A stretch of DNA of 64,000 nucleotides from Cenococcum geophilum (taxonomy: Eukaryota). Where the stretch lies: NCBI GenBank assembly GCA_050273025.1, contig CP158635.1, positions 14,446,001 to 14,510,000 of the forward strand, read 5' to 3'. This document shows, piece by piece, positions 5,207 through 36,104 of the stretch; within the stretch, counting starts at the first letter, position 1; every line of letters starts with the position of its first letter. The notes under the pieces are model-generated. The model had not been told where the DNA came from, searched no databases, and was given only the letters and a program-made list of their open reading frames with translations. A program made the position numbers and the translations under genes.

Positions 5207-5765
5207 AGAAAAAGCTACTAAAAAAAGGACTTATTAGGCTTTTACTAGTAAAAAAGCCCTAAAGGCAATCCTCCTCTTATTAAAGAAATTCTAACTAAAG
5301 GAGATATAGAAAAGTACCTACACCTCCTATTTTATTAGGCTTTTACTTTCTATAGAAGAAAAACCTAAGAAAATTCTATATTTTGTGGTTTTGGTATTCC
5401 TACCCTTACCTCGCTTATAAGCTAGGACCACCCCCAAGAAGAATTTTCTCTTTAGAGAAGGGGGTAAAAAGGCAAATAAATCTACCTCTAGCTCGCTAGG
5501 CAGTAGGAATTAGGTCTTAAAAGTTAGAAAATTAATTATTTTTAATGGTAAGATAGATATGCGTAAGATTTAAAGTGCGGTACTACTTTTTAGTAAGGTT
5601 ATATGTGTGGTTATAAGAATATATACGTATAGGTGTTAGCGACTCCATCAGGAAATTTTTTTTGGGGCTCGTTGTTGCGGTTTGCGGCAGGTGGATATGG
5701 TTGGTAGCAATTTGCGCAAAACGTACGTTTTGCAATAAAATCGCAGCACCTAATAGCAAATTACG

Positions 5766-5945
5766 GCAAAATGCTACCCCTATAAATAAATTATAGCAAA
5801 ACGCTACCCTATAAATAAATAGCGCGCAAATAGTACGAATTATAAAAACTGTACGAATTGTATAAACCGTACGAATTATACAAACCGTACGAATTGTACA
5901 AACTGTATAAATTGTAAAAACTGTACAAATTGTAACTATATAAAT
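5766..5945. repeat. Subterminal repeats: two GCAAAAYGCTACCC(C)TATAAATAAAT copies, then an ~18-bp TGTACGAATTGTACAAAC array
   Basis: Directly visible direct and tandem repeats. Confidence 0.8.
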
Positions 5946-6097
5946 TATAATTATATTATATAATAACCAAATTATTATATATTCCCATAGATTTCTATAA
6001 TATACTTTTAAATATATTTATATTATAACTATATAAAATGTAGAGCTATCTACTTTGGGCGTTAAGGGGGAAGCCTCTCGCAGAGGCTCTAAATTAT

Positions 6098-6270
6098 CTA
6101 CCTACCTACCTGCCTGCCTGCCTGCCAGCCTGCCTGCCAGCCTACCTACCTGCCTACCTACCTGCCTACCTGCCTGCCTACCTGCCTACCTGCTTGCCTA
6201 CCTACCTGTCTGTCTGTCCGTCCGTCTATACCTACCCGTCTATGCCTACCTGTCTGTGCCTACCTGTCTA
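6098..6270. repeat. (CTAC/CTGC)n tetranucleotide microsatellite
   Basis: Visible 4-bp periodicity. Confidence 0.9.
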
Positions 6271-6344
6271 TGTCACCTTGATTCGATCGATCGATCGAAT
6301 CGTTTATCGTGTTCGCTGGCTGGTCGTTCGAACGGTTGTCGTGT

Positions 6345-6780
6345 GGCTCTGGCGACGGTCGTGTGGCGATGACGACGGTCGTCTGGCTCTGACGGTCGTC
6401 TAGCTCTGGCGACGGTCATCTGGCTCCGGCGACGGTCGTCCAGCTCTGACGACGGTCGTCCAGCTCTGGCGACGGTCATCTGGCTCCGGCGACGGCCGTC
6501 TAGCTCTGACGACGGTCGTCCAGCTCTGGCGACGGTCATCTGGCTCCGGCGACGGTCGTCTAGCTCTGGCGACGGTCATCTGGCTCCGGCGACGGTCGTC
6601 CAGCTCTGGCGACGGTCATCTGGCTCCGGCGACGGTCGTCTAGCTCTGACGACGGTTGTCTAGCTCTGACGACGGTCGTCTGGCTCTGACGGTCGTCTAG
6701 CTCTGGCGACGGTCATCTGGCTCCGGCGACGGTCGTCTAGCTCTGACGACGGTCGTCTGGCTCCGGCGACGGTCGTCTGC
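6345..6780. repeat. ~20-bp GC-rich minisatellite (GCTCYGRCGACGGTCRTCYR)
   Basis: About 20 tandem units with an internal dyad GACGAC-G-GTCGTC and no spacers. Confidence 0.92.
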
Positions 6781-6945
6781 TGGCTGTCGTTCTGGTGTCT
6801 TCCTAGGTAGGGAGGATGTAAGGAAGGGTAAAAAATGAGGTGGCTACCTAGGTGTATATAGGGGGTATACTTGGCAGAGGCACGTGTAGAGGCTATTGGG
6901 AATATAGCGGGGACCCGATAGTAGTGTGTCGCGCGCATACACAAA

Positions 6946-8058
6946 GGCTTTGTGTAGAGCTTCGTGTAGAGCCTCCGTATGCAGAGCTTCGCGCAGAGCC
7001 TCGTGTAGAGCTTTGCGCAGAGCCTCGTGCAGAGCCTCTATATGTAGAGCTTCGTGTAGAGCTTCGTAGAGCTTTATGCAGAGCTTCGTGTAGAGCTTCA
7101 TATAGAGCTTTGTGCAGAGCTTCGTGCAGAGCTTCGTGTAGAGCTTCGTGCAGAGCCTTGTGTAGAGCTTCGTGTAGAGCTTCGTGCAGAGCCTCGTGCA
7201 GAGCCTCTATATGCAGAGCTTTGTGTAGAGCCTCGTGTAGAGCCTCGTGCAAAGCTTCGTGTAGAGCTTCGTGTAGAGCTTCGTGTAGAGCTTTGTGTAG
7301 AGCTTCGTGCAGAGCTTCGTACAGAGCTTCGTGTAGAGCCTCGTGCAGAGCCTCTGTACGCAGAGCTTTGTGTAGAGCCTCGTGTAGAGCCTCGTGCAAA
7401 GCTTCGTGTAAAGCTTCGTGCAGAGCTTCGTGTAGAGCCTCTGTACGCAGAGCTTCGTGTAGAGCATCGTGCAAAGTTTCGTGTAGAGCTTCGTGTAGAG
7501 CTTTGTGTAGAGCTTCGTACAGAGCTTCGTACAGAGCTTCGTACAGAGCTTCGTGTAGAGCCTCGTGCAGAGCCTCTGTACGCAGAGCTTTGTGTAGAGC
7601 CTCGTGTAGAGCCTCGTGCAAAGCTTCGTGTAAAGCTTCGTGCAGAGCTTCGTGCAGAGCTTCGTGTAGAGCATCGTGTAGAGCATCGTGTAGAGCCTCT
7701 GTACGCAGAGCTTCGTGTAGAGCATCGTGCAAAGCTTCGTGTAGAGCTTCGTGTAGAGCTTCGTACAGAGCCTCGTGCGAGCCTCTGTACGCAGAGCTTC
7801 GTGTAGAGCCTCGTGTGGAGCCTCGTGCAAAGCTTCGTGTAGAGCTTCGTGTAGAGCTTCGTGTAGAGCTTCGTGCAGAGCTTCGTGCACGAATTCGTGC
7901 AGAACTTCGTGTAGAGCCTCGTGCAGAGCCTCTGTACGCAGAGCTTTATGTAGAGCCTCGTGTAGAGCCTCGTGCAAAGCTTCGTGTAGAGCTTCGCGCA
8001 GAGCTTTGTATAGAGCTTCGTGTAGAGCTTCGTGTAGAGCTTCGTGCAGAGCCTCTGT
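6946..8058. repeat. 12-bp minisatellite (GTAGAGCTTCGT) with periodic longer variant units
   Basis: ~1.1 kb tandem array; it produces the ASCR/EALH/TKLY pseudo-ORFs. Confidence 0.95.
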
Positions 8059-8059
8059 A

Positions 8060-10465
8060 TTCTCGCTTGCAAAAGTGTTTAGAAAAATTGGGGGCTTAGC
8101 GCCCCACCAAAAAAAAAATCGAATTCGACCAATTTGACGACTACCTTATATAGACCCACCACGAAGCCTTTGGTAAGCCTAAATATTGCCTAAAAAGTAT
8201 ATATTTATCAATTATATAGTATTGCAGGTCCATTTTTGCCGTTCCTTTCCGCTTTTACTATGCCACCGCGGGCTCCTGCCTATATTGTCGCTATATAGGT
8301 ACCTAGTATTCTATATCAGCTTCCTCCTAAATTAAGTACCTTATTAGGGCCCTTACCAAGATTAAGTATTAAGCGTCTTCTTAAACTCATTAATATGCGC
8401 ATATATTAAAGCTTGAGTCCCTTTTTTCTCTACTATGCTAATTAAAGTGTCCTCATAGTTGTCTCTATTCCTCTTTATATACAGCGCCTGCTAGGTATAT
8501 ACCTCTTCCGTAAAGCCTTCCTTTGCTATATTAAAAAGCTTAATATACTTAGGGTACCGTATTAAGAGCTAATCTATATATTAATTAATAAGAGGCGGGA
8601 GATCTAGGTCCTTGGTAATTGGGCTACTTTTATAAGGAGCAGTAGATTGCGGTATAGGAAATTAAGACTGCTGATTTAGCTATAGAGCCTACGGAGCCTA
8701 TGGAGCCTATAGAGGTTAATAGTAGTATATATAAGGTAGTGGCGGAAAGGCCGGGTGGCTCCACTGAGGTTAATACTGCGGCTGTGGCGGCGGTAGTGGC
8801 TGTTTCTACTACTCTACCTTTTTTCTCCCCCCCTTCTTCTTCCTGTTCTTTATATTAACTAATATACGAACTATTACGGCGTTTAGAACCTCTATAGGAA
8901 CTTTATTAGCGCTAGCGGTACCAGCTACTGCTATATTATATTATTCTTAAAGCTCTAATTAATTAAGCTCCTAATGGCCGCCTACCTAATTAATGCACCT
9001 CTTTAATACGTTCCTGCACCCGGGCTTGCGGTAGGCTATAGTTTAGGCAATAAGTATATATATCGTCTGCTTAGTAACCTCTCCTTCCTTTATAAGCCGT
9101 GCCTTTATATAGGCCTCTGCGTATATCGTCTTTTTAGGCATAGTAGTAGGTGGCAATTTAGGCGCAGGAGCAATTGTTAGCATAGGAGCAATTATTGGCG
9201 TAGGCTCCAGAGCCTACGCTAAGGCTTAATTTGGTTCCTTAATTGGTCCTATAGCCAATTAGGAGTACACTAATTAAACTATTACGGTAGTACTACGCCT
9301 TTCTAAGCCCTCTTACCGATATATAATTATATCTAAGGCTTCCTACTAGTCGTCATGCGTCGTTATATAAGGCCGTTTAGACGTTATCTTAATCGCTCGA
9401 AGACCTAGGCCATCTGGAGCCTTAATTAAGATCGTCCTTTTAATAAAATGCGTATTAAAGCCTTGCGATCTAGCGTATTTCTCTACTCCTTCCTACTTAT
9501 TAATCGCAATTAAGCCAAATAGTAGGTTATTTAACTTCTTTACTAAGCTTAATATAAGCAGCTTCTTATTATTAAATAGAACAATAACATTTATTAAAAA
9601 GGTAGCAATGGCTAGTGCTGGCGAGAAATTAAGCTCCTTCCTACGACGCTTGCTGGCCTTAGTAGGAGTCTTTATAAGCTCTCTTATACTGTCGTCTAAG
9701 GCCTTAATATTAGATATAGGCTCTAGGGGCCTGCTTTTCCTAGCGGCTAATTTTGATGCATTTGACGGCCTTTTTGACGTTAATTTATGCTTATTCTGAT
9801 TTCCTATTTAGGAAGCTCTATACGGCCTTAATTGAGAGACTATCTTTAGTGTCTTTTTAGTTAATCTACTAGAACTCCTTGGTGGATCGCCCCCCCTATA
9901 TACCACTTTGGGTCTACTCCTTTTTAGATTAGAAAGTTCTTCTACCTCATCTTTATCTTCCTTATCGTCCTCAGCCTTAGCAGGAAGCTCCTAGTTATCT
10001 TCCTTATTAAAATTAGGTAGCGTATAAATATTACATAGGGTATTAAACGAGGGTAATTTAGGGCTTAATTGGAGCTGCATACTGAGCGCATCTTCCTCTC
10101 CTAAGTTATAATCCATAGAATTAGAGCTTATAACTCTAATTGGTAGCTGGGTAGTAAAGCCTTTAGTAATAGGGGCGGGATTAGGAAGCTGTTTGGTGGT
10201 AATATGAGAGGTAATATTTAGTGGGCTGCTGGGGGGGATCTAATCGGCCAAAGGCTGTACCACCTTCTGCACTGACGTTTTGCCCTTATTCTAATACTTG
10301 GATATTTAAGTTTTAAGCTTATTTAAGCCCTACGACACTTTACCAGAGCGTAATATAGGCATGGTGGCTTATTGTAGGTGGTAAGCTTTAAATTAGTCGA
10401 ATTCGATTTTTTTTTTCGTGGGGCGCCAAGCCCCCGATTTTTCTGAACACTTTTGCAAGCGAGAA
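8060..10465 (-). mobile_element. TA-flanked TIR element with only the accessory Cys/Trp-motif ORF; no transposase found
   Basis: ~85-bp inverted repeats (8060-~8146 and ~10380-10465, TTCTCGCTTGCAAAAGTG...). TA at 8058-8059 and 10466-10467. Confidence 0.8.
8215..10362 (-). pseudogene. Accessory Cys/Trp-motif protein, copy 1 (RIPed)
   Basis: CCACC-ATG at 10362 (MPxLRSGK). De-RIPed CRKPGCRNVSKRCIDQVGGHQELDQSELQEWHDMAVAGTASADEVP at ~9035-8890. C-terminal ...KKGTQALIHAHIDEFKK. The 3' end is approximate. Confidence 0.7.
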
Positions 10466-10499
10466 TATCAAGAATTTGCAGAAGATAAGAAAACCACAG

Positions 10500-10618
10500 T
10501 ATTAGGAAAAAAATTTTTAGGCACGTTGTTGCAAGCGAAAATCGGGGTCTGCAAAACCTGCGTAAGTCGCAATTTTGGTAGTTTGCGGCGATTTGCAGCA
10601 ATTTGCTACGAACACATA
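10500..10618. repeat. Internal inverted copy of the large element's right end (matches 28279-28396)
   Basis: TATTAGG (RIPed CATCAGG) ...CGTTGTTGCAAGCGAAAATCGGGGTCTGCAAAACCTGCG...ACACATA is the reverse complement of 28279-28396 with a few changes. Confidence 0.92.
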
Positions 10619-10681
10619 GATAGGGTAGGCGCGTGCATAGGTATTGTTCTTGCCGAAATATCGTGAACTCGCGCCGGAGTA

Positions 10682-13600
10682 TTATAGTTTCCTTATCGAC
10701 TGCAACTCGCTTCTAGATAAAGGCCTCCCACATTAAATAATACACCCCCAATTGCCCCACTAAATATAGCTTTATATTTTATAAATAGAGGCCTATTTTA
10801 TAGCTCTATTCCAGGGCTATAAAATAAGCCCTTATTTATATAAATTGGACGAATATTAGTGGAATTATATGGGGTGCTTTATAACTTGAATTGAGGCTCT
10901 ACACTGACTAATCCGACCCCTTTACCCCCAAAATAAGCACCCCTTATAACACTACCAAAATAGCCCTAAATTATATAAATAAGGGCTTATTTTGCAGCCC
11001 TGGAATAGAGCTATTAAATAGGCCTCTATTTATAAAATATAAAGCTATATCTAGTGGGGCTATTAGGGGTGTATTATTTGATGTGGGAGGCTCTTATCCG
11101 GAGGCGAGTTGCAGTCGATAAGAAAACTTGTCGATCGGTAGTCCGTGCACCGATGAGTAAGTAAAGAATGAGGACTCTGTCTATTCAAACTATGAAGAAA
11201 AGAAGCTATTTATACATGAGGTAGGTCCAGGTAACTGAGTCAAAATAGGTAATAGAAACGGGTGGTGAGACCTAGGGCACTAGGCATCAAAGACAGTAGT
11301 AAGACGGTAGTAAGACGGTAGTAAGACGGTGGTAAGAAAACCTGATCTGGATTGACACACCCCCCTAGCTTTGAGCCCCTACGGGTCAAAGCTATATCGC
11401 GGGTCTTGGTATAGTATTAAGTCGAATATACCCTATATCTTCCTCCTTGCTTACCTTTTTTAATTTAGATCCTTTCCTTAATATTAACTAAATTTAATTA
11501 ATAAATAAATGTCTCGTGCTTCTGCCTTAGCAGAGCTTTTATTAAGCCGTCTGCTACTATTACTATAGTAGGCGTCTAGTTGATCCTAATTCGATTGTTA
11601 TGTACTTCTTGACGTAACCAGTAGTGGTGTATATTAACATGTCGGAGCTTTATAGATAGCTCTGGTCCGTCTTTTATAAGTAGTCGAATTGTCTATAGAT
11701 TGTTACAGTTAATCGTCTGCCTGTTATCTAAGGTTAATCCAATTTCTTTAAAGAAGCGACCCTACTAGATTAATTCTGTTCCTGCATATAATAGAGCTAT
11801 AAACTCTGCCTTTATACTTGACTTTGTTACTAATATCTACTTAGTAAAGCGCTAGTTAATTAGTCCCCTGAATAGGGTAAACAAATATCCTTCTATACTA
11901 CGTCTACTTATTAAGTTGTCTCCAAACGCTACGTCACTTGCTCCTATGAAGACCTAACTCCCTATATTATATCCTAAGTATTTAATCGCGAGGGTCCTTT
12001 TCTAATATAGGTAGGCGATTGCTTGACGAGCTGCGGCGTTATATAGGGGTAAGGGGTTTCGTAGGAATTCCGATAACTTACTTGAAGCTCTCGCTGTATT
12101 AGATCTCGTAATGCAGGTCGCATAGAGGAGTGAGCCGATTATCCTCTAGTAGACGTAGATGTCTTATTTTAAAGCTTCCTCCAGATTTAGTAGGAGCTTA
12201 TTAGTGCTTATAGGTATACTAACTAAGCGTATATTAGTTAAATAAAAGTTATTAGCAATCTTCTTAATATAGGAGTCTTAACAGAGCTATAGCTTCCTCT
12301 AACTCCTATCTCTTAAGACTTAAATTCCTAGGAACTAGGATAGTTTACCTAAGTCCTTTATCTCGTATTTCTTTATAAGCGCAGTCTTAAAGCTTAAAAG
12401 CTCTAACTAGTTCCCCTTAGTGCTTACGGCATAGATATCGTCTATATAGAAGAATATAATTAGCCGATTGTTATAGTAGAGACACGGCTCTCCGCTAATA
12501 GGCTTTAACCCTAATTTAGTTAGTTCCTGACTTAAGTCGTTATACTAAAGACGTGGCGATTATTAAAGTCCGTAGAGAGCTTTACGTAGTAGTAGACATT
12601 TGCCCTTAATAGTAAATCCATCCGGACACTTAATATAGACTATTTTGTTAATCAAGCTGTTTGCGAACGCGTTAATAGCGTTGCCCTGCTAAACGTCTAA
12701 ATTAAATACTGCGATGACTGCTATAAGAGCTCTAAAGACTTTGGCTGCCAGAGTCGCCGTATAGGTGTCCTTATAAATCGACTCTTATAGATCGCCTCTT
12801 ACACAAAGTCGTGCTTTAAACTTCGTTAGATATCTATTAGTGTCCATTTTATAGGTAAATCTCCAGGTCATAGGCACCGTTTTAACTGATAGTAACTTAT
12901 TTATGACCTTAAACGTTCCACGACCTTCTAGGTTAGTATACTCTTTTATAACAGCAGCAAGGAAATCTTCCCTATACTAGTGTCTTATAAGCTCCTTCTA
13001 GTTCTTAGGCGGAGGTGGTAGCTTATCGCGATGGATTTTCCTGTAATATTTTAGGCCTACGTAGAAGGCTGCCTAAAGCGCTTTAAAGCTATCTACCTTC
13101 TTAAGGTAAGTTAAATGAGCTATATATCATTTAGGTAGCCTTTTTAATTATTTACCTTTTATAATATTGTCTTCCTTAATAGCTGCGCCGTCTTTATCCT
13201 TTAAGTCATCCTCTACAGGTACGTATTTATAATGTGGTTATTAACAGGTAAAGGGAGCTAAGGAGCTTAAGGATTCTTTAGTAGGAATTAACTAAGGTTC
13301 TAGCGTCTCGTCTAGGGTAGGAAGGGCAGGTAGGAAATTGTCCTTTAAGGTTTATAAGCTTGCTACGTTATTATCTTAATTGGTTGCTTGGTCTTAATTT
13401 CCACTAAAATCTGCCTATTAATTTCTACTATTTTCTACTTAAATCTTATCTAAAGTCTTATTGTCCTTATCTGACGTTTTGTTAAGCTCTTCCTAAAGCG
13501 TCCTATTAATGTGCGACACATTAATTACCTCCAAAATTTAATTAGCGCGTTTTTGGAGCAGATTCGCGAGATTTAGCTAATTATTATTATAAAGCAATTG

Positions 13601-16407
13601 CTCATTAAATATAACGTCTCTTATTTAAATTACCTTTTTTTCGCTAAGTATATAGATCCTAAAGATATTTATTAACTGGTACCTAACTAGGTATCTAATA
13701 TAAGCTCTTAGCTTAAGCTTTTAAGTGCGTAGGAGGTTATATTTAAGTGGGTAGGCTCTACAGCCGTATATACGTAAATAGGCTATATTTAGCTTTAATG
13801 GCGAGAGCCCTAGTGCTAACTAAAGCTTCTTAAAAGGTGTTATCTAGCTAAGCTGGGCGTTTGGTGTCCGATTAATTAAATACGCTATAGCTCTAATAAT
13901 CTCTGGCCAGAGCTCTTCTAGTAATTAAGCTTCAATTCGCATACAGCGAGACTTAATAATAATTACCCCCCTAGAACATTTAGCAGAACCGTTCTAAGAC
14001 TTTATATATAGGGCCGATTACTCCACTATAATTCCTTTTTAGTTCGTCTAACTATAGAAGTCGCCACTAAGGGAGGTCTCGCTATTGACTTGGATAACCG
14101 CAATCTTCTGATTATATTAACGCTTCACCCTGTTTGAATATCGTATAATTGCTTGCGTTAACGATAACTTTCAGGCAAAGGTCTCTACCTCGTTTATTCG
14201 CAGAAATTCGTCATAGAAATGTATCGTCTATTTATGACCGTTATACGCCACAATCTCTTAAAATAGGTCGATATATATATAGTAGAAGGGCCTCGTTGCC
14301 TTGTTGGTAGGTGCTCTTCTTAATACAATTTCGCGAGCCTTGCTGACAGCATAGGATTCACAGTTAATTGTCGCTGGTCCTTAAAGCTTCGCACCTTCTA
14401 CCTCCTAAGGTAGATGCTTAATTGCCTTCGGTCTTATATGGCCTAGTCTCTTATACTAGAGCCTTCCTACTACTTCTTAATTAGGAAGGGGGTCTTGTAA
14501 TTAGATTATAAATAAGGCTTTTGGCTTATTATATTCAAACGTGTTTTAGTTATAATGTTACCCGCAATAGGTAAATATTTTATAATTGTCTTTGTAATAT
14601 AGTAGGTTCTTTTTATTATCCTACTATATGTTTTTATTGTTAAACCTATCTAGATAGGCCAAATTTGTATGGAACGCTAGTATATATGCTGCATTAGCTA
14701 GTAGGATCCTCTTGGGGCCTGCTGGCGTCTAGATTATAACTACTACTATCCCTATGCCCTTAACTAGATCTAGGCCCGTTCCGGCGTATATAAAGTTATT
14801 ACTTAGTTAGAGCTTGTCAACGAATCTTAATCAATCGTTAATAATATATATTGTGGTTCCGTTATTAAAAATCACGCTATTATATAGCTTATAGTCAGAA
14901 CCTACATTATAGGCGCCTACTTGGTGTACGGCGAAGATACTATAGTTGTTTTCCTTTTGACTTCCGTCTGGGTTCCGTACGGCTTCCTTTTGTGGAGCTT
15001 CCTTGCTTAAAGCCTCCTTCCTTATCTTCTTAATCTTTGACTTGGTCTAATCTAATACGCTTATAATTCTTTCCTTAACTTTTGTAGCTGTGGCTTTGTT
15101 AGATTTCTAATCCTTTAATTAAACCGATTTGTTAATATAAGGACACTCTAGAAACCAGTGAATATCTCCGCAGTAGCATAGTGGGGCGTCTTTCTTCTGT
15201 GACGTCTTAGACGATGTAGTAGTAGAGGTTTTGTCCTTAGAAGCCTTATCCTTAGAAGCTTTATCCTTAGGAGCTCCGTTAATTAACTCGCCCTAGAAGC
15301 CTACTACATTAGCGCTAAGCTAATCCCTTCTCTTTTAGGTAGTCTCTATTCGTTAATAGTTCCAATATATTTCAACTAGTCAATCTATAGATATTATCTA
15401 GTTACTAGCCCAGTTGTATTTGTTAAATTCGACCCTCTACATTAAAGCCCAGTTTGGTAATGCTGGCTCTACCGCCATTAAAAAGTCTCTAATTATACGG
15501 TCGCCGTGTACGTCTAGCAATTTGATCTTTTTGCAGTCGTTATATGTCTTCTCCTACTACTATAATTAGGCCTCAAAGTTCTGGTTCTTTAGACCCTTTT
15601 TAACCTTAGTATATTAAGTGGATAGGTATAGCTTATATGCTATATTAGTAGGGGCAACCCTCTCCTTAAGAGCCACCAGGGTATTATATACCGAGTTAAT
15701 ACCCAGTATATAGGTGTTAAGGTTCCTAGCTACTATACTAATAATATAGCTTCGTAGGGAGGTTAAAGCTACCTTCTACTTCTTATATTCCTTCTTTACT
15801 ATTTTATACCTCTTACGGAGAATTTAAAGCTCATCCTTCTTGTCCTTAGAGAGAGCTATATATAAGGTCGTTCCTGTCTTTACATCTTAAGGCCTAGGAA
15901 AGACTAGTTTAAGCAAACAGGGCAACTAATTCTGTTTGGTTAAGGGGTTAACATATTCCCATATATTTCCTATTTAAGCTTAAAGCCTAATAAGGTTAAT
16001 CTATTCGTCCTAATCAGCTTAGTTTAATAATATTACCGTTATAGTAACAGCTTAAGTAGTTTAAGAGGTTATATTAAGAGGTGCTTGCAAAGACGAATAA
16101 AGTATTTAATAAGGGATAGGATTAATTAAATTAATAGGTGTAATACGGCAAGTCACCCGGGCTTATAACTGTCAATTAGTAGTCCGTACACTAATAAGTA
16201 AGTAAAGAATAAGGACTCTATCTATTTAAACTATAAAGAAAAGAAGCTATTTATACATAAGGTAGGTCTAGGTAACTAAGTTAAAATAGGTAATAGAAAC
16301 GGGTGGTGAGACCTAGGGCACTAGGCATTAAAGACAGTAGTAAGACGGTAGTAAGACGGTAGTAAGACGGTGGTAAGAAAACCCAATCTGGATCGACAAA
16401 ACTATAA
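10682..16407. mobile_element. ~450-bp foldback MITE (10682-11128 plus 16404-16407), interrupted by a Copia near its right terminus
   Basis: Almost entirely self-complementary (TTATAGTTTCCTTATCGACTGCAACTCGC.../...GCGAGTTGCAGTCGATAAGAAAACTATAA). TA at 10680-10681 and 16408-16409. Confidence 0.88.
11129..16398 (-). mobile_element. Copia LTR retrotransposon, full length, RIPed
   Basis: 229-bp LTRs at 11129-11357 and 16170-16398; TSD AAACT. PBS-like GTTATAAGCCC next to 16169; PPT next to 11358. Order is zinc knuckle (~15160), protease DNGTT (~14860), integrase (~13985), RT FYVDDI (~12445), RNase H. Confidence 0.95.
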
Positions 16408-16564
16408 TAAAGCCGGTCATCGCGCACCACCCAATTTCACATAGAAATCGATGCCATTGATTATTTTTGCTTGCCCACGCCTTCCACCCCCAACAATTAC
16501 GGCGTAAAATCATACTTTGGTCTAGCTGCATTAAGCCAATTATATAGAATTGCTGGTGTTAACC

Positions 16565-18148: not shown

Positions 18149-18154
18149 AGAGCC

Positions 18155-19173
18155 TTATTCTACTATATAGCCAGCCCTTTTAAAATAGCCTTCCGCATAA
18201 ACTCTATAAGCTTAACTAATTACAAACTCTAGAAATCTATTAAAGCTCTTAAAGTTAACCGCTAGTATATAGTTTTTTTTTATCTAAGCCTTTAGATCTT
18301 TAAAAGTTGCCTTAATTAAATTAAAATCTGGTAAATATAGTGGTAGGAATTTAAGAATAACACCTACCTAGTTATAAAGCTCTTAAAGCCGCTTTAACTT
18401 ATAGATAGATGCGTTATCTAGTATAATAATTAATTACGGCCCTGGGTACGGTATACAATTAGGTAAAACTTTATACTCTATAAAAGCCTTAAAAAGCTTA
18501 TTTATAAAAGCTCCTTAAAAGATAATATAGTCTATATAGCCTTTAAGCGTTAACGCCGGTAAGATGCTCCACCGTTTAGATCTTTTATATAGCGTTAACA
18601 CCTTACAGTCTGCACTAACTGGCGCCTAGCCTTATTTTCTATCACTAGTCCTCTTATTTAAAGCCGACTTATTAAGAAAGATAAGCTAGTTAGCAAGCCA
18701 TTCTTTCTGCCTACTTTGCCACGTATAATGGAGCAATAAGCTTTACTAAGCGGCACGATTAGAGACTACCTTTTAAGAGTACTAAGCTGCCTTAAGAATA
18801 CGGCGAATAGTGGTAATAGAGGCTTAGATGTCGAATTCGTTAAAGAGGAAGTCTTACATCTCGTTAAGATACGCAGTAGGCCTGTCTTTAAGATACTTAA
18901 GCAGTTACTATAAGTGGGCAGGAACGTTAATAAAAAACTTAACATTATGCCAAGAATACTGACCTGCTTTTGATACTCCAAAAGAAGGCCCGGTCTACCT
19001 AGTTTTACAGTAGATGGCGCGTATGGTTGGCCCCAAAGGTCCTAGTTTAATTGAAGCTTATAAACAGTTGTTTTTAACAGCCCTAAAGCGACTGCTATAT
19101 TAGGGATGTACTCATTAAGATCTAAACGAAGCTTGATTTGGTTTATAACCTTAATTAGAAGACAACGGCCTAT
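18155..19173 (-). pseudogene. IS630/Tc1 DDE transposase (RIPed)
   Basis: N-terminal HTH (IAVALGLSKTTVYK...GRP), FLDESA ~18675, LDNASIH ~18415, FLPPYSPDFNPIE ~18350-18312. Confidence 0.9.
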
Positions 19174-19547
19174 TATAACGACGTGTGCAAGCAAAAATAA
19201 TCAATTGCATCGATTTCTATGTGAAATTGGGTGGTGCGCGATAACCGGCTTTACTCCGGCGCGAGTTTACGATATTTCGGCAAGAACAATAGCCTATCCG
19301 CCTCAGAGTCCTACAGGGTCCGCAAGGTTCGGTGTCGCCCCCCCCGTGCGCGCAGCAGCGGTGGCATCTAATTTCGCTTAAGCTTCGCCTAAGTTAGTAT
19401 GTAGAGCTAGCAGAATTAGATGTAGTGGCCGCTAGGGGGGGGAGACGTCGCCTTACATTTGAAGCTATTTATAATATCTCTTCCTTACCAATATCGTGAT
19501 CTTTATTCTAGATCATAGTGTAACTCTTATTGTCGCCTCTATTAAAT

Positions 19548-20577
19548 ATGGCACCCAATATACATAAATGGCAATACGTCTTCCTTAAAATCCTTATTAA
19601 CGCGGGCGCCACTAATTAATAGTATCGTGTTTAAGCCAAGTGCTCTTATAGAGCTGTTTAACGAATTTAACGGAAACTAGAGAGGTACGGAAGGACGAGA
19701 CTTAGTTGTGTATACTTTGGCCTAAAGAGTGCACTAAGCTCTTAGATAATTATTGTATTGCTTTACCGACTTAATAAGGCACCAAATCTATATCTAAATA
19801 AGATGGCTTGGTATATATACAACAGTTTTAGAGTTATAGTAGGCCCGTGAATAATTGCTGCAGAGTTAAAAGTCGCTGGCTGGAGTAGGAAGCTGGTAAG
19901 CTACATTCTAAATATATGGATGAGGAAATAACTTACTTATATATAAGGCTTGTTGCGTTACTTTAGAGTGGAGTTAGGAAAACCGCAATTAATACTAGGC
20001 CAATATCTTATAGTTTACTATTAAGTAACTTGTCTTTATAGACGAATCTAGCGCTAATTTAAAGACGGGTATACGAAAGTTGGCTTGGGCGCCGGTAGGC
20101 ATAACGCTAATCCTATATACTCTATATAATCGCGACAAGCAGCGGCTTAATATTCTACCTATGTATACTATTAACGGTATACTAGTATTATTAGTATATA
20201 GCGGCTTAACGAACGCGGAAGGATATAATTACTAGATTAAATACTACCTCCTGCCTTACTATAATCCTTATTTAGCTCTGAGGTTAGTAGTTATTATAGA
20301 TAATATAAGCTTCCACCATTTAGAACGGATTAAGTCTCTTTTTGCTGAGCGTGGTATAGTGCTTATCTATTTACCTGCATATTCGCCTGATTTAAATCCG
20401 ATTAAGGAGTTCTTTAGTAAGCTAAAGGAGTATATTTAACGACATTTTAGATTATGGAGGAGTAAGCCAGAGCTTTGGGGTAATGAGTTTAAAAACTTCC
20501 TATAGTGGTGTGTAGATACTATAGGTAGAAGGAGTAATAACGCTAGAGCCTATTTTGGCTATAGTGGGTATATATAA
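19548..20577 (+). pseudogene. DD34E transposase (RIPed)
   Basis: ATG at 19548, FIDES ~20035, DNxSFH ~20299, LPAYSPDLNPIEEF ~20371-20412. I counted 34 residues between the second D and the de-RIPed E. Confidence 0.92.
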
Positions 20578-20599
20578 GGAAGGATTGATAGAAGAGTTA

Positions 20600-22670
20600 G
20601 TAAGTTATTAGATTTGGGTTAAACCTTATAATCTTTAGCGTGGTGTTTTTTAGTAGGAGTTAGACGTTGCCTTAGTCGGCTTACTATATTACAGAACTCT
20701 TATATAAATTACTAGTAAAATCTATATTCTACCCTAAACTTTTAGGCAAAGCTATACTAGTATAAAAAATCTACTGCTTATCTTCCTCTAAATCCTTAAT
20801 ACTACTAAAAAGCTAAGCAACTTATAAAGTCCTCTAGTTCTTAATATCCTAATATACCTATTCAGCAATTGCCTCTAGTACTCCCTTATTAATTATTATA
20901 TCAACTAGTATTTTACCCTCTTTATTTAGCTTTTACTCCCTAATAATCCTTAAGTCCCACCGCTTCTTATAAGTAACTTAATAGGCGGCTTTAAAATTAC
21001 TTTCCTACTCTAGGTCTTCTTGTACTAAGAGCTTCTGCTAGTTAAAATACTCCCGTAAATTAGCTATGTGATTTAGGCCTTACAAACAAGGCAGAGGAAC
21101 TATAGGTAATGATTTTATAGTTAGGTCTTGCCCTAATAGTAGTATAGCTGGACGCCTATACTGCCTACTAGTTAGATTAATATAAAATTAATTGATAATG
21201 CTAGGAGTATTAGGTGTAGGTAACTTAGTAAAGGTAAATTAAGACTTCTTACTACCTCCCTTTTTCTAATCTTGAAGCTTTTTAAATAGCTTACTATGAG
21301 GTGTGCGAATAGTAGCTAAACTATCCTTAATAGCCCGCGCCCACTCCTTAAGGTCCTTCTACGTTAGCTTATAGTTAACTTGGCAATAGATCTAGCACTA
21401 AAAAGAGCCTAGGTACCTCTTCTTATATTTCCACTCCCTATATAGCTCTAGCCGAAGCTTAGTAGTCTTTAGGTAGGGGGCTAGAGAACGAGCAATATCA
21501 CTAGCCTTATACTATTTAGATTGCGGTATATTTAAAGGCATATCCTATAAGGAGATAGTGGCAGCTAGCTATGTTAATAATGGCTATGTTAATAACTGTG
21601 CGGCTATTATAGAATAATTAGTAGAGCGAGCGGTAGATCTAGCTTAATTGTTTACCTTAATATATATAAAGCTAACTTTAACTAAGAGCTACTTAGTAGA
21701 GCCGTCTATATTCCAGTACTTCTTTACTAAGCTTATAAGTTTACTGTTAATTAAGCTCTAGCTAGCTTCCTGACTAGGATTAATCTTAAATATCACTTAA
21801 GTCTTATTCTTCTTAGTATATAAAACCGACGCATTACATAACTCTCGTATAACGCGATAGCTAGGAAGCTGCTGCTTAATAGCCTCATTAATTATAGGCA
21901 GCATATTATAACTATATGCGAGTGAGAGGCTTAGGTGAGAGTCAGTAAAAGTATATATAACTATATTCTGAGTCCGTACACCCTTCTTAAGCTTCGCTAA
22001 TAATAAGAGACGATAGTTAAAAAAAGATACCTCTACTGCTTAGCTTTGCCTGCTCCAATTCATGCTTAAATTAAAGCCTTAGTAGTGGCTCCTCCTCCTT
22101 ACTTTCCGTCATTAAATCCTTAGGTGTTGGCTTAAATACTTGCGAAGGAAGTATAGGGGGTCTCCGCAATTGACGCGGGGTTTGTATATAGTGGCTAATA
22201 TTATCTAGATTAAGCTCTGGGTAGAGGTATAGTAATTAATAATATTGTTACTGACTTAAAGGACGATAGGAACCTATATTTAAAAGCTACGTAAGACGCG
22301 GCAGCTGCGGAGGAGCCCTCATTGTATTATAATCCTGCGATTAATAGAAGCGTTAAACCTCCTCACGATCTACCTCCTCTGCTGCCTTAGGATGATTCAA
22401 TATTTCCTTAAGCTCGCCGTTAGTAAAAGCAGCTGCCTGCCGTAATGGAGGCAACCCATTAAACGCTATTGGTAGAGAGAAGTTAAGCTGCGTGCTAATC
22501 TGGCTACTAAATACGGGCGGCAGAGTCACGACCGTACTTATACTTAAGCTCTGCGTTAAGATAGGTGGTTAAGGAATAGATAAGGATAGTATTGGCGACA
22601 GTCGAGGCCTTTAATGGGGTGGACGAGAAGGACTTCCAACGGCGGCAGCGGCAGTACGTTTAGAGCTCAT
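20600..22670 (-). pseudogene. Accessory Cys/Trp-motif protein, copy 3
   Basis: ATG at 22670 (MSSKRTAAAAVGSP). De-RIPed EWKCEKRxPGSFWCWIHCQV...DLKEWARAIKDGLATIRTP at ~21436-21300. C-terminal KGVPEAIAEQVHQDIKNW. Confidence 0.75.
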
Positions 22671-23147
22671 ATTGACGAGAGGAAGGCTCTATTACACTAA
22701 GATCTAGAGCAGATATCACAATATTGGTAAGGAAGAGAAGTTGCGAATAGCTTCAAATGCAAGGAGGCGACGTCTCCCCCCCCCTAGCGGCCACTACATC
22801 TAATTCTGCTAGCTCTACATACTAACTTAGGCGAAGCTTAAGCGAAATTAGATGCCACCGCTGCTGCGCGCACGGGGGGGGCGACACCGAACCTTGCGGA
22901 CCCTGTACAGCCTGTTGCACGACCAGCTTCCCCCCCCCTCAAAAAAAAAGTTAATTTCGCTTCGGTACGCGGGCTCACTAAATCGCCACCAACTGTATAT
23001 AGTAATCGAAGCGAAGCCAAGTACCTATACGCAAGTGCTGGTTGCTAGGGGCAATTAAATTAAAGCTATATATTTAGAACTTGCCTAGCTTACCAAAGTC
23101 TCAATTAATTCAAAATCGTGTCCTAAAATCGTCAATTTGCCTTCAAT

Positions 23148-25000
23148 ATAAATCCTCCTTCAAAACGCGTAGCGGCTCAATTAACGGGTATATCTCCTCG
23201 CCCTTAACAAAATCGACAAAGCCTCCTTCCTCCCTTATTACGTACGTCTCTACCTTCATTAAGTCACCGGGGTGTCCTACAATAGCCGCCAAGACACAAA
23301 TACAACGCTATTTAGCTAGACTTTACATTAAAGGAGCTTAAGGAAATAGAAAATAATCTGGAAGCTATAAATAAGGACAATAAGGAAAATACGGAGGCTT
23401 AGCTTAACTATATATAGAGTTAACAGACTTCTTATACGCAGAGCTAACAGGCTTCTTAAAATCAGATCGGCCGATCAACTCAATTAAGGCCGTATAAGTC
23501 ACTGTATTTAATATAAGATCCTACCTACCCACAGTCAAATATAATAACACCATAATATTAAGCTATAGCCTTTTAGGCAGCTGCTTAAGCTTATCTAGCT
23601 CCTTAGTCTCCTTTACAAAATATAATTAAAAATAAAGAAGAAATAACTCCGCCGCCTTACCTATATATAAAGAGTAAGATTAGTAATATAGGAAGAGCTA
23701 GCGGCGGCGTGTTTATTACTTATAATTATAATATATTAATTTAATATCTAAAGGAGCTGGTATTTACTAAAACTCTCGTTAATATAAGCCTTTAATATTA
23801 TAATCTTTAGCGACTTTAAGTCTTTCCTATTTATAAGAGGGAGCTACATTATTAAGAGCAAGGTATTCGCGTTAAGCTCTAGCCAATTAAGGCAAAGGTT
23901 AACACTTAGCATATAGGCGTTTATAATATTAGGTTTAATATAGATTCTAAAGTCGCAAATTAGTGGCAGAAGGTTAATACGCAACTCATTATATAGGCTC
24001 AACATACTAATAGACGTGGCGAGATTAAGGCTCTAACTATTAACCTCTTAATTATATATACTCCAGATAGAAATTAGCTAGTAGGTAGCTCTCGCCCATT
24101 AATAATTAATTAACTCTATAATAAACTTCTAACGCCCTCGCAGAGCTTAGAGCTTAATATAACGCCTCATATACCTACTAGTAGTATTACAAATTTAATA
24201 GGCTTACAAGTTAAGCTTACTAGGTATTAGCGCTATAAAAAGCACTATTTTAACGCCAATTGGTATTATATACTTAGCTAGGTAGATATTAAATTAATAG
24301 ATAAGGACTTACGGGAGTAGGTAACTAGTATTTAGCAAGGCATCGCAAATATTAAGAATCTACCTTATAAGCTTGCTACTCGGCTTACTAAGAAAGCGGC
24401 AACAAGAGGAAAAAGTGGTAGAAAAGTACGCCAATCTGCCTCAAGCAAGAGCTCTACAGTTAATAGCCTAGGCATCATTAATTACTTTCACGTTAGCTCT
24501 ATAGGCTCAATATTAGATTAGCAAATTACTTCTACACCAGTAAGCCGACTGCCCTTATTATCCTTACCTATATTACTAATATACCGCTTATAAGGTATTA
24601 ACCGCGCAAAAGATCTAAAGGAGTTCTTTAAGTATTAGAGGCAGAGTGTAGCTAGCAATCTTAACTAGGAGGCTGATTTCAAAGCTACGCATAAGGTTGT
24701 CTATAATTTAAGGTAGAACTTAGAGCTCCTACGTAATAAATCTAATAGCGCTAATCCTATTAAGGAGCTTATTAAGGCTAGTATTAAATCAGGTGTCGCA
24801 AGACGGCTATAGAAGGACTTAAAGAAGTGGGCAAATAAGCGTCGTACGCAGCTTAAGGGGAATTTTCAAGATATAGATAATTAGCAAAATATAGGGTGTC
24901 TCTGCCACTGCTAGCGCCCCTATAGTGGCAGAGACGCCCTATATCTGGGTTCTTTAAGATATAGATTATCGTAATTAGCAAAATATAAGGTCTCTTTATT
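23148..25000 (+). pseudogene. Accessory Cys/Trp-motif protein, copy 4
   Basis: RIPed start ATA at 23148 (MxPPSKRAAAQ). De-RIPed WRCEKHCSNANWCY...DLREWxTSIQQGIANIENPP at ~24228-24365. C-terminal GIKSGVARRLQKDLKKW at ~24780-24830. End approximate. Confidence 0.75.
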
Positions 25001-25122
25001 ACTACTAGCTCCCCTATAGTAATAAAGACACCCCATATATATAATAGATTAAAGCCTTTTAGTAAGTTATATACGGTCAAAAACGCTACCAAAGATCAAT
25101 TGCAACTCTTACCCTAAAAACC

Positions 25123-26158
25123 TCAATAATTATACCCACTATATTGGAAATGGCCTCTTACACTCTCGCTCTTGCTACTAACCTTATTTATACACTAAAG
25201 GAGGAACGCTTTAAAGCTATAGCTAAAGTTTTCTAGGTACTCTAGCTAAGAGAACTACTACCACTAAATAAAGTCCTTTAGCTCTCTAAAAAACTCTTTA
25301 ATTAGATTTAAATTAGGTAAGTATAATAGTAAATACACTAGCTTAACTCTAAAGGTATTAAAGAGAGACTGCATCCTTTCTAAATAATAGAAGCTGGCGT
25401 TATCTATAACTACTACTAATCACTTAGCAGGAAAGCGATTATATTATAGTAGAAGAGTATATACCACCCAGAACTTAAAGCCTTTACTATTTATCAAGCC
25501 TTTATATACCAAAGCTGCTAGTATGCCGTTAATCGTATATATAGGCAGTATATTAAGCCTCCTCTTACCCCAATTATATGGCGTCTATAAGACTGGTATA
25601 ATACTAAAAGGAGCCTAGCCTACCTTCCGTACGCCTATCTTTGAATCCATACCTAACTCATCTACAAATACTAGTTAATTGGCGGTATACTATAATATAA
25701 TAGCAAAATATATATCACAATCGTAAGCGCTACATTTAAGAGCTACCTAGTAACACTTCTTTATATAAGCTACTCTCTAAGCTCTATACTAGAGGATTTA
25801 ATTAGCTTACTTGCTTCCTTATCTAGCCAGCTAAATAGAGCTCTTAAAATATTATATAGCGGCTTACTATAACATTAAACGTATTATAGATTAGCTATTA
25901 CAACTCATTACCAAAGAGAGTTGGCTTCTCCTTTAGCTGTATTAGTATTACCATAATCATCGGATCGCTTAGGAGGAACTAGCCGCCTTCACTATTTAAA
26001 GGTACCCAAGTTAAGCTAAAAACTCATAAGTTCCTGCTAATTAAGGTAATTAAGCGAATCGTACAACTAGCGGCGGAGGTATACTCTGCTCGGGTCGCTC
26101 CAAGTTAAAGAAGATCCTTAATTAGGGCGTGCTAATATGGGCCTATTCGCGGAGCTAT
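25123..26158 (-). pseudogene. IS630/Tc1 DDE transposase (RIPed)
   Basis: MAPRIG... start, FVDExG ~25665, DNASF ~25400, YLPPYSPDLNPIEEFF ~25335-25290, TGA at 25125-25123. Confidence 0.9.
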
Positions 26159-26381
26159 ACTACGGGTAGAAGATAGGTAGAAACCTCACAATATTTAACA
26201 ATAATCACGACATAGGAAGATCAATCGTGGACAGCTTTAGGAACAAGGCTCTTACAGCCAAGCATACGGCTTCACTTCGATTACTATGTACAGTTGGTGG
26301 TGATTTGGCGAGCCCGCGTACCGAAGTGAAATCAACTTTTTTTTTTGAGGGGGGGGGAAGCTGGTCGTGCAACAGGCTGTA

Positions 26382-28239
26382 CGTAGCTCAACGGGCCACG
26401 TAGCTCAACGGGCCTGCTTAGCCGAAATCTAATACACCACTTTTTATTAGCAATCTGTATACCATAATTATGTCTAATAAATACAAAACTGAAGAGAAGC
26501 GCGTCTAAGATGCAATTAATTACAAAAATCGACATCCTGGGTTATTGCTTAAGACGTACGCCAATGAATTCGACGCGCCATATAAACGTGTCGTAGCGCG
26601 TCACAAGGGCGTGCAAAGCAAGATGCAGAGGCCAGGAAGCAATAAGAAGCTTAATTCTATATAGGAGCAGATGCTTCTGGCATATATTAAGCGCATGGAT
26701 TGTATAGGAACTTATGCCTTAATCCATCAGGTCCACGCTGCCGCTGAGCGCATCCTTATCCTCCACGCCCAACCTGGCACTAAGCCCGCCTCTCTTAAAC
26801 GCGACTAGACTAAGAACTTTATTAAATAATATAAAGAAACACTCTATAAGGTTAGACAGAAGCCTATAAAGGTAGAACGAGCTGCTTTAAATAATTTAAA
26901 TAAGATAGTGGAGTGGTATACGTTATATAAGGACATTAAGGCAAAATACGGTATACTCCTATGCGACGAATATAACTTTAATAAGTCTGGGTTTTGCATT
27001 AGGATAAGTAGCGCGTAGTGGATTATAACGCGAGTTTTAAACAATAAAAGATTGTATTTAGTAAGTGAGATAAACCGCGATTTTACTTCGGTATTGGAGG
27101 CTATATTTAGTAATAGTGTTACGCTTAATCCGGCGGTTATTATTAAAGGTGCCCAAATTATACACTAATACCTTAATAATATAGATATACTAGATAGGTA
27201 TATGCTAGGTACGTAAAAAAGAGGCTACTTAAATAATAATCTTGCGTTTAAATGGATTTAGCACTTTAATAAGCAGAGCGCACGTTAATAGATAGGCGCG
27301 CATTAACTGCTATTACTTAACGGCCACGGATCGCACCTTATGATAGAGCTAGCTTAATATTATAAAGAAAGGAATATTTATCTTTTAGCACTTCCGGCCT
27401 ATATAAGCCACTTTCTATAACCTCTTAATGTGGTATTATTCCAGCCGTATAAGCACCACCATCGACGTACTATTAAGATGGCCGTCCGAACGGGCTGTAT
27501 AAACTTTAACATCGTTAAGTTCCTATACGCTCTATACCATATTCGGGTCACCATATTTAAACCCACGTCTATTAAATCGGCATAGGAGAAAGCTGGCCTT
27601 ATTCCATATAATCCTAAGCTTGTTTTAACCAAGTTGCGACACTAAACTGCTGTTATACGCCTATCTATACCCCCACCTATAAAAAGTGTCTAGCCACCGT
27701 TGCAGCCTGCGCCCCTCTGGACGCCTATAACACTAAGATCTATTTCTTAAGCTATTAGCGAGCTTCGTAATTACGTATATAGACAGGACGTAAGGCACCG
27801 GGGCCCGTTATATAAGCTTATAAAGGGTGCTAGTATTAATGCCACGCTTCGCGCGTTAGCTAAGGAAGACCTATATAAAACGCAGGTAGCGGTACAAGCG
27901 CGCGCAAAGCAACAAAAAGGCGACCAACGTGTCGTCTCAAAGGGAGGCCTTATATCTGCTAAGGACGGACGACTTAAGGTATCGCAGAGAGTCCGCGCTG
28001 AGGCAGAGAAGGCAGCTAGAGCTGCTGCGCGTGCAGTAAAGAAGCGGGCTGCTGAGGACGCCAAGCGGGCTGCTAAGGCCGCAGCGGCGCCAATTTTGGA
28101 CAGAGAGTAGATAAAGACTATCGCATTAATTACTATACTACAAATATTAATATATCTGTCTTGCACGTGGAGCTATATAGCTTTAAAGTTGTAAGGTGCG
28201 GGGCATGGCCCGTTGAGCTACGTGGCCCGTTGAGCTACG
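26382..28239 (+). mobile_element. Fot1/Pogo-family DNA transposon (RIPed transposase ~26470-28110)
   Basis: ~33-bp TIRs with an internal direct repeat ACGTAGCTCAACGGGCC; TA flanks. De-RIPed YNFDESGF ~26971, LLDGHGSH ~27313, LQPLDV ~27415. Confidence 0.93.
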
Positions 28240-30143
28240 TAGGACTCTGAGGCGGAGCCGAAGAGTCCGTGGGGCGGATATGTGTTTGTAGCAAATTGCT
28301 GCAAATCGCCGCAAATTGCCAAAATTGCGACTTACGCAGGTTTTGCAGACCCCGATTTTCGTTTGCAACAACGCGCCCAAAAAAAAAATCCTGATGTCAG
28401 TCAATTGAGGCATGGGCACGGCAAAGGGGACGCGCAAGCCTGTACGATTGGATTGTCTATAAACGAGAATCTAAAGCTAGGGAAAGGAAAGGAGAAGAAG
28501 AGTAGCGCCGTTTAATGTTTTATAAGATCTTCGCGTTACATAACCGCAATATACGGCAATCTGTGGCAACTTGCCGGTGCGTAGTTCTGCTAAGTTCTGC
28601 CAGTGCCGTAATATTACCCCCCCCTCTAAAAAAGCCTACCCTTAGGCTTTGCCGCTAAAAGTCTTAGTAAGAGAATCTAACTAATTAGATAACTTTAACC
28701 GCCGGTTAAAGTTCCTAGATATCTTAACACCTTACATAACTAAGAAATTTTTAGAGTATTTTTGTTCTTATATTCTTCTAGTAGCTTATTATCTTTATTA
28801 TACTAGCATTCTATTTACTTATCTAGGTACTTTAACGGTCTAGGTTTATTAGGGTAACAGCTATAAAACTCTTAAAGCTTATAGGGGCTACCTATAAAGT
28901 TCTATATAGGGTACTAAGTAGGGTCTAGGTTATATTCTTTCTAACTAATATAATACTTTAACGTTCCCTTTATAAGTTTATAGGCTAGTATTTCTTTAAT
29001 TTCCTATTTATTATTATTATTAACTTAAATTAGTAGGGGAGGTTAATTTTTTTATCTAGGTAGTAGGTTATTTATAGCTTTTTATAGCTTATTTAGTAAG
29101 AAGATAGGGTAAACTTTAATTAAGTCTGGGAGCTTAACCTTATATAAGTTGCCTACTTTATTAAAAATCTTATACAGTCCTGCCATCTTATAGTCTAGCT
29201 TATAGTTAGGCGGTTCTATCTTCTAGTTCTTTATTATAACCTAGACTATATCGCCTATAGTAAAATTAGGCTTATACTTATACTTATTCGCCTACTATTC
29301 TATTAATTTTAAGCCTTTTTTAGGTTTGTATAGGCTACTTTCTAAGCTTCTTCTAAGCGCTTAGCGTACTACTAGGCTTCCTTATAAGATAGTTTTTCGC
29401 GTATAGTCTAGGGCCCTTTTAGTCTTTCCCAGTTAAAGCTTATATAGGATAGGTAACCTATTTCTAGTTAAATAGGGGCAAATCCGGTAGAGTTGTGGGG
29501 TAGGGTGGCTTAGGCGTAGTCTATTAAGGGTAATAGTTTAGCCTAGTTATTCTAGAAGTAGTTAATTAAAGGCCGGAGTTTTTAGTTTAAGTATTAATTA
29601 ATAATTTCTGTTTAACCGTCTATCTGGGGGTAATATGCTATAGAAAGCTTTAGCTTAATGCTTAAGATTTAGGTAAACTTATTCTAAAAGGCTAATATAA
29701 ACTATAGCCCGCGGTTAGATATAATAGTATTTAGTAGTTCGTAAATTTAGTAGACATAGTAGATATATAATTAGGCCGCCTCTTTAGCATTAATATTTTT
29801 ATAATAGGGAATTAAAAACGGGCGTTTGCTAAAGTGGTTAACTAGGATTATAACTATATTATATCCGTTATGGTCTAGAGGTAGCTTATAAAAGTCTATA
29901 AAGATATATTACTAGGGGTGGTTGGGTATTAGAAGGGGTTTTAATAGTTCTAGGGTTTTATCTTATAGAATTATAGACCTATAGTAGTTATTGCAGTTCT
30001 ATATATAGCGGTTAATATCTATAATTATTCTAGGCTAGTAGTAGCGATCGCTAATAATCCTACGGGTTTTATTTTTTCTAGGGTGGGCCGTAAAGACCTA
30101 GGTATATACTTTGGCAATAAGCCAAGTCCGTAAGTTCTATTTC

Positions 30144-36100: not shown

Positions 36101-36104
36101 AACA
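30144..36104 (+). mobile_element. Copia B, full length, inserted in Gypsy A pol
   Basis: 194-bp LTRs at 30144-30337 and 35911-36104. TSD GTTTC (left copy RIPed to ATTTC). Protease DTG ~32505, integrase, RT DITQAY ~34473, QTDD ~34737, RNase H FVDGSF ~35170. Confidence 0.94.

Follow-up and report, generated by a model that had tools for sequence, protein, structure and literature searches.

The PlavakaB families described in PMC12730594 end in 5′-CATCA..TGATG-3′ and are flanked by target-site duplications of 2 or 3 bp, and Plavaka sequences in the supplement of that source start with CATCAGC, CATCTGG or CATCGGG. The same source quotes CACTA (CAC..GTG) termini and a 3-bp duplication as features of EnSpm and reports that PHIS relatives can give duplications of 0, 2 or 3 bp. 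The defining mark of an autonomous Plavaka element is pfam18759 (PMC8290104), Plavaka with 2-bp duplications and terminal inverted repeats (TIRs) has been reported from an ascomycete, the Chinese white truffle (Tuber) (PMC12581995), and Helentron-derived non-autonomous elements of the DINE-1 type (PMC4067079) offer a further system for comparison. Here we analyse a stretch of 64,000 nucleotides from Cenococcum geophilum (assembly GCA_050273025.1, contig CP158635.1, positions 14,446,001 to 14,510,000; the whole stretch is called the window, and positions are counted from its first letter), in which the block 5646–28396 opens with CATCAGG and closes with CCTGATG. We propose that this block is probably one of multiple copies of a non-coding cut-and-paste transposon, hereafter the CATCAGG unit, which resides in a host with repeat-induced point mutation (RIP), is non-autonomous and of PlavakaB type, and was later filled by nesting.

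We examined the two boundaries by reading the sequence across them. The block is a 22.75-kb insertion bounded by CATCAGG...CCTGATG and a TC duplication: the left boundary reads gcgacTC followed by CATCAGGAAATTTTTTTTGGGGCTCGTTGTTGC, and the right boundary reads GCAACAACGCGCCCAAAAAAAAAATCCTGATG followed by TCagtc. Both outer termini are free of mutation and share a TIR of about 32 bp. The interrupted sequence is a long terminal repeat (LTR), of which only 12 bp (5634–5645) lie to the left of the insertion. Uninterrupted versions of the site are present at 52296 (gcgactcagtt) and at 40111 (gcgacttagtt), and self-alignment of the window matched the right flank (28397–30144) to 52306–54063 at 89.7% over 1,759 bp and 28399–28606 to 40123–40329 at 92%. 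On the minus strand of 36105–40100, a Pfam scan detected RVT_1 and, after it, RT_RNaseH, which identifies the interrupted retroelement as Gypsy-type; the plus strand gave no match. Since the domains run in this order on the minus strand, the interrupted LTR is the 3′ LTR; its partner in the same Gypsy element is the copy at 40111, which makes that copy a good empty-site control. These results bear out what an earlier reading of the window from its sequence alone (the sequence-only reading) had described, namely a CATCAGG-ended 22.75-kb insertion with a TC duplication, 12 bp from the end of an LTR whose empty site occurs twice more in the window. A second LTR element with 194-bp LTRs (30144–30337 and 35911–36104) spans 30144–36104 and recurs at 54498–60500; it occupies the same place in both Gypsy copies, so this nesting is older than the Gypsy duplication.

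We then separated the sequence of the unit from that of its nested transposons, using self-comparison of the window, reading of junctions, and Pfam scans of open frames and element-sized translations (stops read as X). What belongs to the unit is 5646–8057, 10500–10643, 19292–19294 and 28279–28396, or 2,677 bp in all; it has no Pfam match, and its long open frames fall inside tandem arrays. At its right end, 10514–10618 is an inverted copy of 28279–28383 (94% over 105 bp by self-comparison), and a third CATCAGG-type terminus lies at 10500, where TATTAGG differs from CATCAGG by two C-to-T changes. The right end is therefore a foldback made of an inverted arm, a loop and a terminal arm, about 265 bp long with two inverted arms of about 118 bp and a 28-bp loop. 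The inner terminus lacks a matching duplication of its own (AG versus TC). On its left, a 12-bp minisatellite ends in the conserved junction GCAGAGCCTCTG (8046–8057), which touches the inner terminus in intact copies. Folding computation gave −107.6 kcal/mol for an intact foldback from another locus (L031), compared with −38.3 kcal/mol for shuffled sequences (z = −20).

We next compared the window copy with loci from a metagenome scan by a 22-nt arm motif and with contigs of public sequencing runs; runs under two organism labels contain parts of the stretch. The motif detected at least 120 loci, most of them from one metagenome and many at contig ends, and copies of the outer left end are known from these metagenome loci only. 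We found 59 foldback pairs among the loci. In 42 of the 44 with both flanks assessable, tandem-array sequence adjoined the foldback on exactly one side; the two exceptions were a short flank that opens with the conserved junction (L116) and a microsatellite in flanking DNA (L017), and none of the 44 was clearly free-standing. Homologues of the left arm (5646–6045) longer than the TIR occurred in 16 of the 120 listed loci, always a few kb from a foldback. Because arrays are one-sided, the junction of GCAGAGCCTCTG with CATCAGG recurs across loci, and the interior of one locus (L038) runs collinear with the three arrays of the window copy, we conclude that the unit consists of a left arm, three arrays and a terminal foldback. 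This layout in turn identifies a joint seen in the public runs, contigs of which (runs X1, X5, X6 and X8) were matched to 8750–28700 at 85% likeness: one contig each in X1, X5 and X6 joins 10643 to 28279 with GCC between, and so carries the intact foldback of another copy. No such joint was present in the contigs of X8, one of the four runs compared. Differing sequence stood before the inner arm in eight contigs of X5 and seven of X6, and 14 contigs of X6 contained the LTR without an insertion.

Thirteen other units are complete, in that the left-arm terminus and the outer foldback terminus both lie within the fetched DNA; they measure 1,792–3,564 bp and have the same layout as the window copy. 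Four more were left out of this set: in L053 the contig ends before the left terminus is reached, L036 and L070 are truncated by contig ends, and the left arm of L043 is that of a neighbouring second unit. The CATCAGG unit is thus a multi-copy non-coding family. We also rejected as a member a locus without an arm match (L034), which looks like a chance match to the pattern. A variant with a full arm and a short partner arm has the same flank (TATAGGAAGTGTAACCGTAGGGGCA...) in six loci (L042, L075, L057, L006, L065 and L109), which suggests that this copy sits within a different repeat, one that has since multiplied. Some units have an intact-looking host gene within 1–3 kb (L002, L008, L030, L035 and L075), so RIP-degraded repeat blocks are not the only setting in which the family occurs. 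Open frames near copies, considered as candidate transposases, proved to be ordinary host genes (Kelch-BTB, zinc finger–exonuclease, ADH, GH72, cyanate lyase and aspartyl protease) and one pogo.

Identical 2-bp flanks enclosed 12 of the 14 units (the 13 complete units and the window copy); the flank 2-mers were TA (seven times), AA (twice), GA, CC, CT and, in the window, TC. One unit (L052) had a 3-bp duplication, TAG, and one (L049) had mismatched flanks, AA/AT. In control comparisons, shifted positions agreed in 0–3 of the 14 units, and left and right flanks taken from different units agreed in 37 of 182 pairs. All 14 units start with CATCAGG or a C-to-T/G-to-A variant of it (TATCAGG, CATTAGG or TATTAGG) and end with CCTGATG or a variant. 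The element is therefore real: the other copies have the duplications and paired ends whose absence, according to the sequence-only reading, would have spoken against it. That reading had also described a block filled almost entirely by other transposons, with some 2.8 kb of non-coding remainder (2,677 bp of 22.75 kb as measured here), and an element that is non-autonomous, has TIRs and repeat-rich subtermini and makes 2-bp duplications, all of which agrees with the ends, the arrays and the duplications of the family. The window has a TpA/ApT ratio of 1.72 and a (CpA+TpG)/(ApC+GpT) ratio of 0.53, which amounts to a strong RIP signature of the classical kind, and 1,255 of the 1,468 differences between its repeat copies are transitions, mostly in CpA context.

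The nested transposons cluster in the foldback region. The first (8058–10499) sits at a TA created by a C-to-T change in the inner terminus; the TIR element proper (8060–10465) has 78-bp TIRs and TA flanks and is followed by 32 extra bp. A Tc1-type element (10644–19289) occupies one loop TA, and an insert of 5.7 kb (10682–16407) interrupts its left TIR; this insert contains a palindrome and a Copia element (RVT_2; LTRs at 11129–11357 and 16170–16398). A second loop TA holds H, a palindromic insert of 54 bp whose arms are at 19297–19311 and 28242–28278, and elements D, E and F are linked through single TAs at its centre (GAGTCC TA GGACTC), which implies that one TA and its duplicates were hit repeatedly. 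Two further features of these insertions stand apart. The TIR of the 2.4-kb 8060–10465 element contains a T-run with GGGGCGCC after it, and a GAAAAATCGGGGG motif, which resemble motifs in the arms of the CATCAGG unit, a likeness that may be coincidence; and the palindrome next to Copia is about 340 bp long (10735–11077) with 69% similar arms.

This clustering raises the possibility that the foldback and palindrome H attract TA-targeting transposons without any role as a carrier, a reading that is compatible with a nested PlavakaB-type copy and that we consider possible rather than likely. Each of the three primary insertions occupies a TA of the foldback region, one in the inner terminus and the other two in the loop, 5 bp from each other, and three more elements are chained at the central TA of H. 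The region holds 14 of the 197 TAs of the unit, and the naive probability of this outcome, (14/197)^3 or about 4 × 10−4, comes from a single locus and a post hoc count. RIP inflates TA counts, the whole window consists of nested repeats, and none of the 59 foldbacks of other loci has a loop insertion, although assemblies break at such repeats. The landing platform proposed by the sequence-only reading thus keeps the concentration of primary insertions in its favour and is otherwise weak, being drawn from one locus. TA-targeting elements may prefer palindromic DNA.

We assigned the unit to a superfamily by its termini and duplication length. The window copy and the 13 complete units have CATCA..TGATG-type termini, with duplications of 2 bp in 12 of 14 and of 3 bp in one, both as reported for PlavakaB (PMC12730594), and on this sequence basis the family is most likely PlavakaB-type (CMC-related). 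The CMC/EnSpm-type superfamily suggested by the sequence-only reading is supported to the extent of this match. Another superfamily with 2-bp duplications could be responsible instead, such as ISL2EU/PHIS relatives, Mirage or a Tc1/pogo relative with relaxed TA choice; the scans found no transposase of the family, TA accounts for seven of the 14 duplications, and the duplication lengths reported for PHIS relatives in PMC12730594 include 2 and 3 bp. We consider this unlikely. Five units have identical non-TA duplications (AA twice, GA, CC and CT), in addition to TC in the window, which excludes strict TA targeting and thereby a derivative of Tc1/mariner-pogo with the strict TA duplication of that group; moreover, the terminus is the one reported for PlavakaB, and CATCAGC, CATCTGG and CATCGGG are the starts of Plavaka sequences in the supplement of the same source. 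Literature searches, which addressed superfamily features and lay outside Repbase and Dfam, found no description of the family. The earlier remark that it was not recognised as a described family accords with this result, which gives it weak support given the range of those searches.

A more far-reaching reading combines these elements: a non-autonomous Plavaka-type family would have evolved a terminal foldback with a spare third terminus, this hairpin-prone end would be a strong hot spot for TA-targeting Tc1/pogo elements, with six insertions here within about 60 bp of the unit's own sequence, and loaded copies, their outer termini being intact, could occasionally move whole stacks of unrelated transposons. 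We regard this as improbable, and more improbable still is the simple carrier proposal, in which the unit took up Tc1/pogo elements and the entire 22.75-kb block then transposed. The TC duplication does bracket the whole block, and the outer termini are unmutated, so that a transposase could still recognise them. Yet none of the 13 other complete units contains Tc1/pogo cargo, each being collinear with the unit's own 2.7 kb in the window; what is nested in a longer, incomplete unit (L053) is a different element, a Mutator-like one (MULE); the loci and runs compared showed no other locus with this cargo order; and other strains contain 0.11–0.17 of the sequence words of 18800–28750. A bias of short-read assembly towards empty copies weakens this negative result. 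The sequence-only reading had advanced the carrier role and had itself named empty copies elsewhere as evidence against it; with 13 of 13 complete units empty, we abandon that role, and we conclude that the block is a normal nested insertion and not a cargo carrier. The MULE in L053 (1965–4673) is heavily mutated, has TIRs of about 220 bp and separates the 12-bp array of that unit from the 20-bp one; given its own long TIRs and a weak domain match (E = 1e-5), we reject this extra 2.7-kb segment as the coding part of the family. Finally, it is scarcely credible that a free-standing foldback of about 265 bp, a miniature inverted-repeat transposable element (MITE), was mobilised once together with an unrelated left-hand element, as the three termini and the inner one without its own duplication might suggest, because arrays on exactly one side of 42 of 44 foldbacks rule out a free MITE of arms alone with its own duplication joined by accident, and the recurring junction and the layout common to 13 complete units speak against it as well.

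We therefore return to a PlavakaB-type unit filled by nesting, a reading built on the observed ends, duplication, empty sites, family, layout and duplication statistics. In the proposed course of events, a unit of about 2.7 kb would have inserted into the 3′ LTR of the Gypsy element with a 2-bp duplication, moved in trans by a Plavaka transposase presumably encoded elsewhere. Tc1/pogo-type elements that target TA would then have entered the foldback region, Copia would have inserted into one of them, and nesting would have taken the copy from 2.7 to 22.75 kb; the nested elements thus probably arrived after the copy had landed. Several points weigh against this reading. PF18759, the Plavaka transposase, has no match in the element (126 open frames and 18 whole-frame translations), in 70 open frames elsewhere in the window or in 134 open frames of the loci, from which we conclude that the family is non-autonomous; these scans cover about 0.5 Mb, mostly as short open frames, and miss genes broken by RIP. 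The superfamily call has a terminal motif of 5–7 bases and the duplication length as its whole basis. As to the order of landing before nesting, one nested insertion is datable, and relative to a point mutation only. The comparison copies come mostly from one short-read metagenome, which favours empty units and whose strain may differ from that of the window.

Table 1 Features of the CATCAGG unit, its nested transposons and the interrupted Gypsy LTR, in window coordinates.
Feature	Position	Strand	Remarks
Last 12 bp of Gypsy 3′ LTR (target DNA), left of insertion	5634–5645	-	
TC duplication copies	left 5644–5645, right 28397–28398		
Left arm of CATCAGG unit	5646–6045	+	TIR of about 32 bp from CATCAGG, then subterminal repeats
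Subterminal repeats in left arm	5758–5820; 5833–5935		30 bp × 2; 18 bp × 5.7
CCTG-type microsatellite (12/20-bp periods), then 14-bp repeat	6098–6272	+	collinear with L038
20-bp minisatellite	6338–6779	+	about 22 copies
12-bp minisatellite	6947–8057	+	about 90 copies
TIR element with 32 extra bp	8058–10499		no Pfam match
Inner inverted foldback arm	10500–10643	+	third terminus TATTAGG at start; ends at TA in first part of loop
Tc1-type element (DDE_3)	10644–19289	-	at loop TA 10642–43/19290–91
GCC, rest of foldback loop	19292–19294	+	
Palindromic insert H (54 bp) with chained elements	19297–28278	.	at second loop TA
Element D	19314–22905	+	DDE_3
Element E	22908–26379	-	DDE_3
Element F, pogo/Fot1-type	26382–28239	+	DDE_1
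Outer foldback arm	28279–28396	+	ends in CCTGATG (right terminus)
Gypsy LTR continuing right of insertion	28397–28606	-	

What is new here is an abundant non-coding family of a known group, most likely PlavakaB; the terminal foldback is the one feature of it that is unusual. An abundant unclassified repeat, for which one metagenome scan gave at least 120 loci, thereby gains a name and a test, and its termini, duplication length and layout allow annotators to mask the family. The little-studied Plavaka group would come to include a family without coding sequence from a RIP-active fungus. The clustering of TA insertions in palindromic DNA offers a small testable point on target choice and leaves the general view of transposons unchanged.

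Non-autonomous CACTA/EnSpm elements have TIRs that start with CA, subterminal repeats and internal minisatellites. The CATCAGG unit differs from them in its terminus, CATCA in place of CACTA or CAC, and in its duplication, 2 bp in 12 of 14 units in place of 3 bp; as CAC..GTG termini are lacking and a 3-bp duplication occurs in one of 14, it is no strict CACTA/EnSpm element. Helentron-derived elements of the DINE-1 type are non-coding, contain internal simple repeats, end in a terminal hairpin and insert between T and T, making no duplication. Our unit is like them in its non-coding repeats and hairpin and unlike them in its true TIRs and its varied 2-bp duplications, which do not fit Helentron-type insertion. 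It shares an ascomycete host, 2-bp duplications and TIRs with the truffle Plavaka described in PMC12581995, whose TIR motif is 5′-CATAC-3′ rather than CATCA, and whose consensuses look coding, automatic annotation having at first assigned them wrongly to LTR/Pao, in contrast to the non-coding CATCAGG unit. PlavakaB of the CMCT clade, as described in PMC12730594, is like the unit in its CATCA..TGATG termini, its 2- or 3-bp duplications and its fungal host. Unlike PlavakaB, the unit has no transposase or other gene in our scans, and it contains three tandem arrays as well as a third terminus, the latter in a terminal foldback about 265 bp long; its host shows ascomycete-type RIP, whereas the PlavakaB families described in that source belong to Agaricomycotina.

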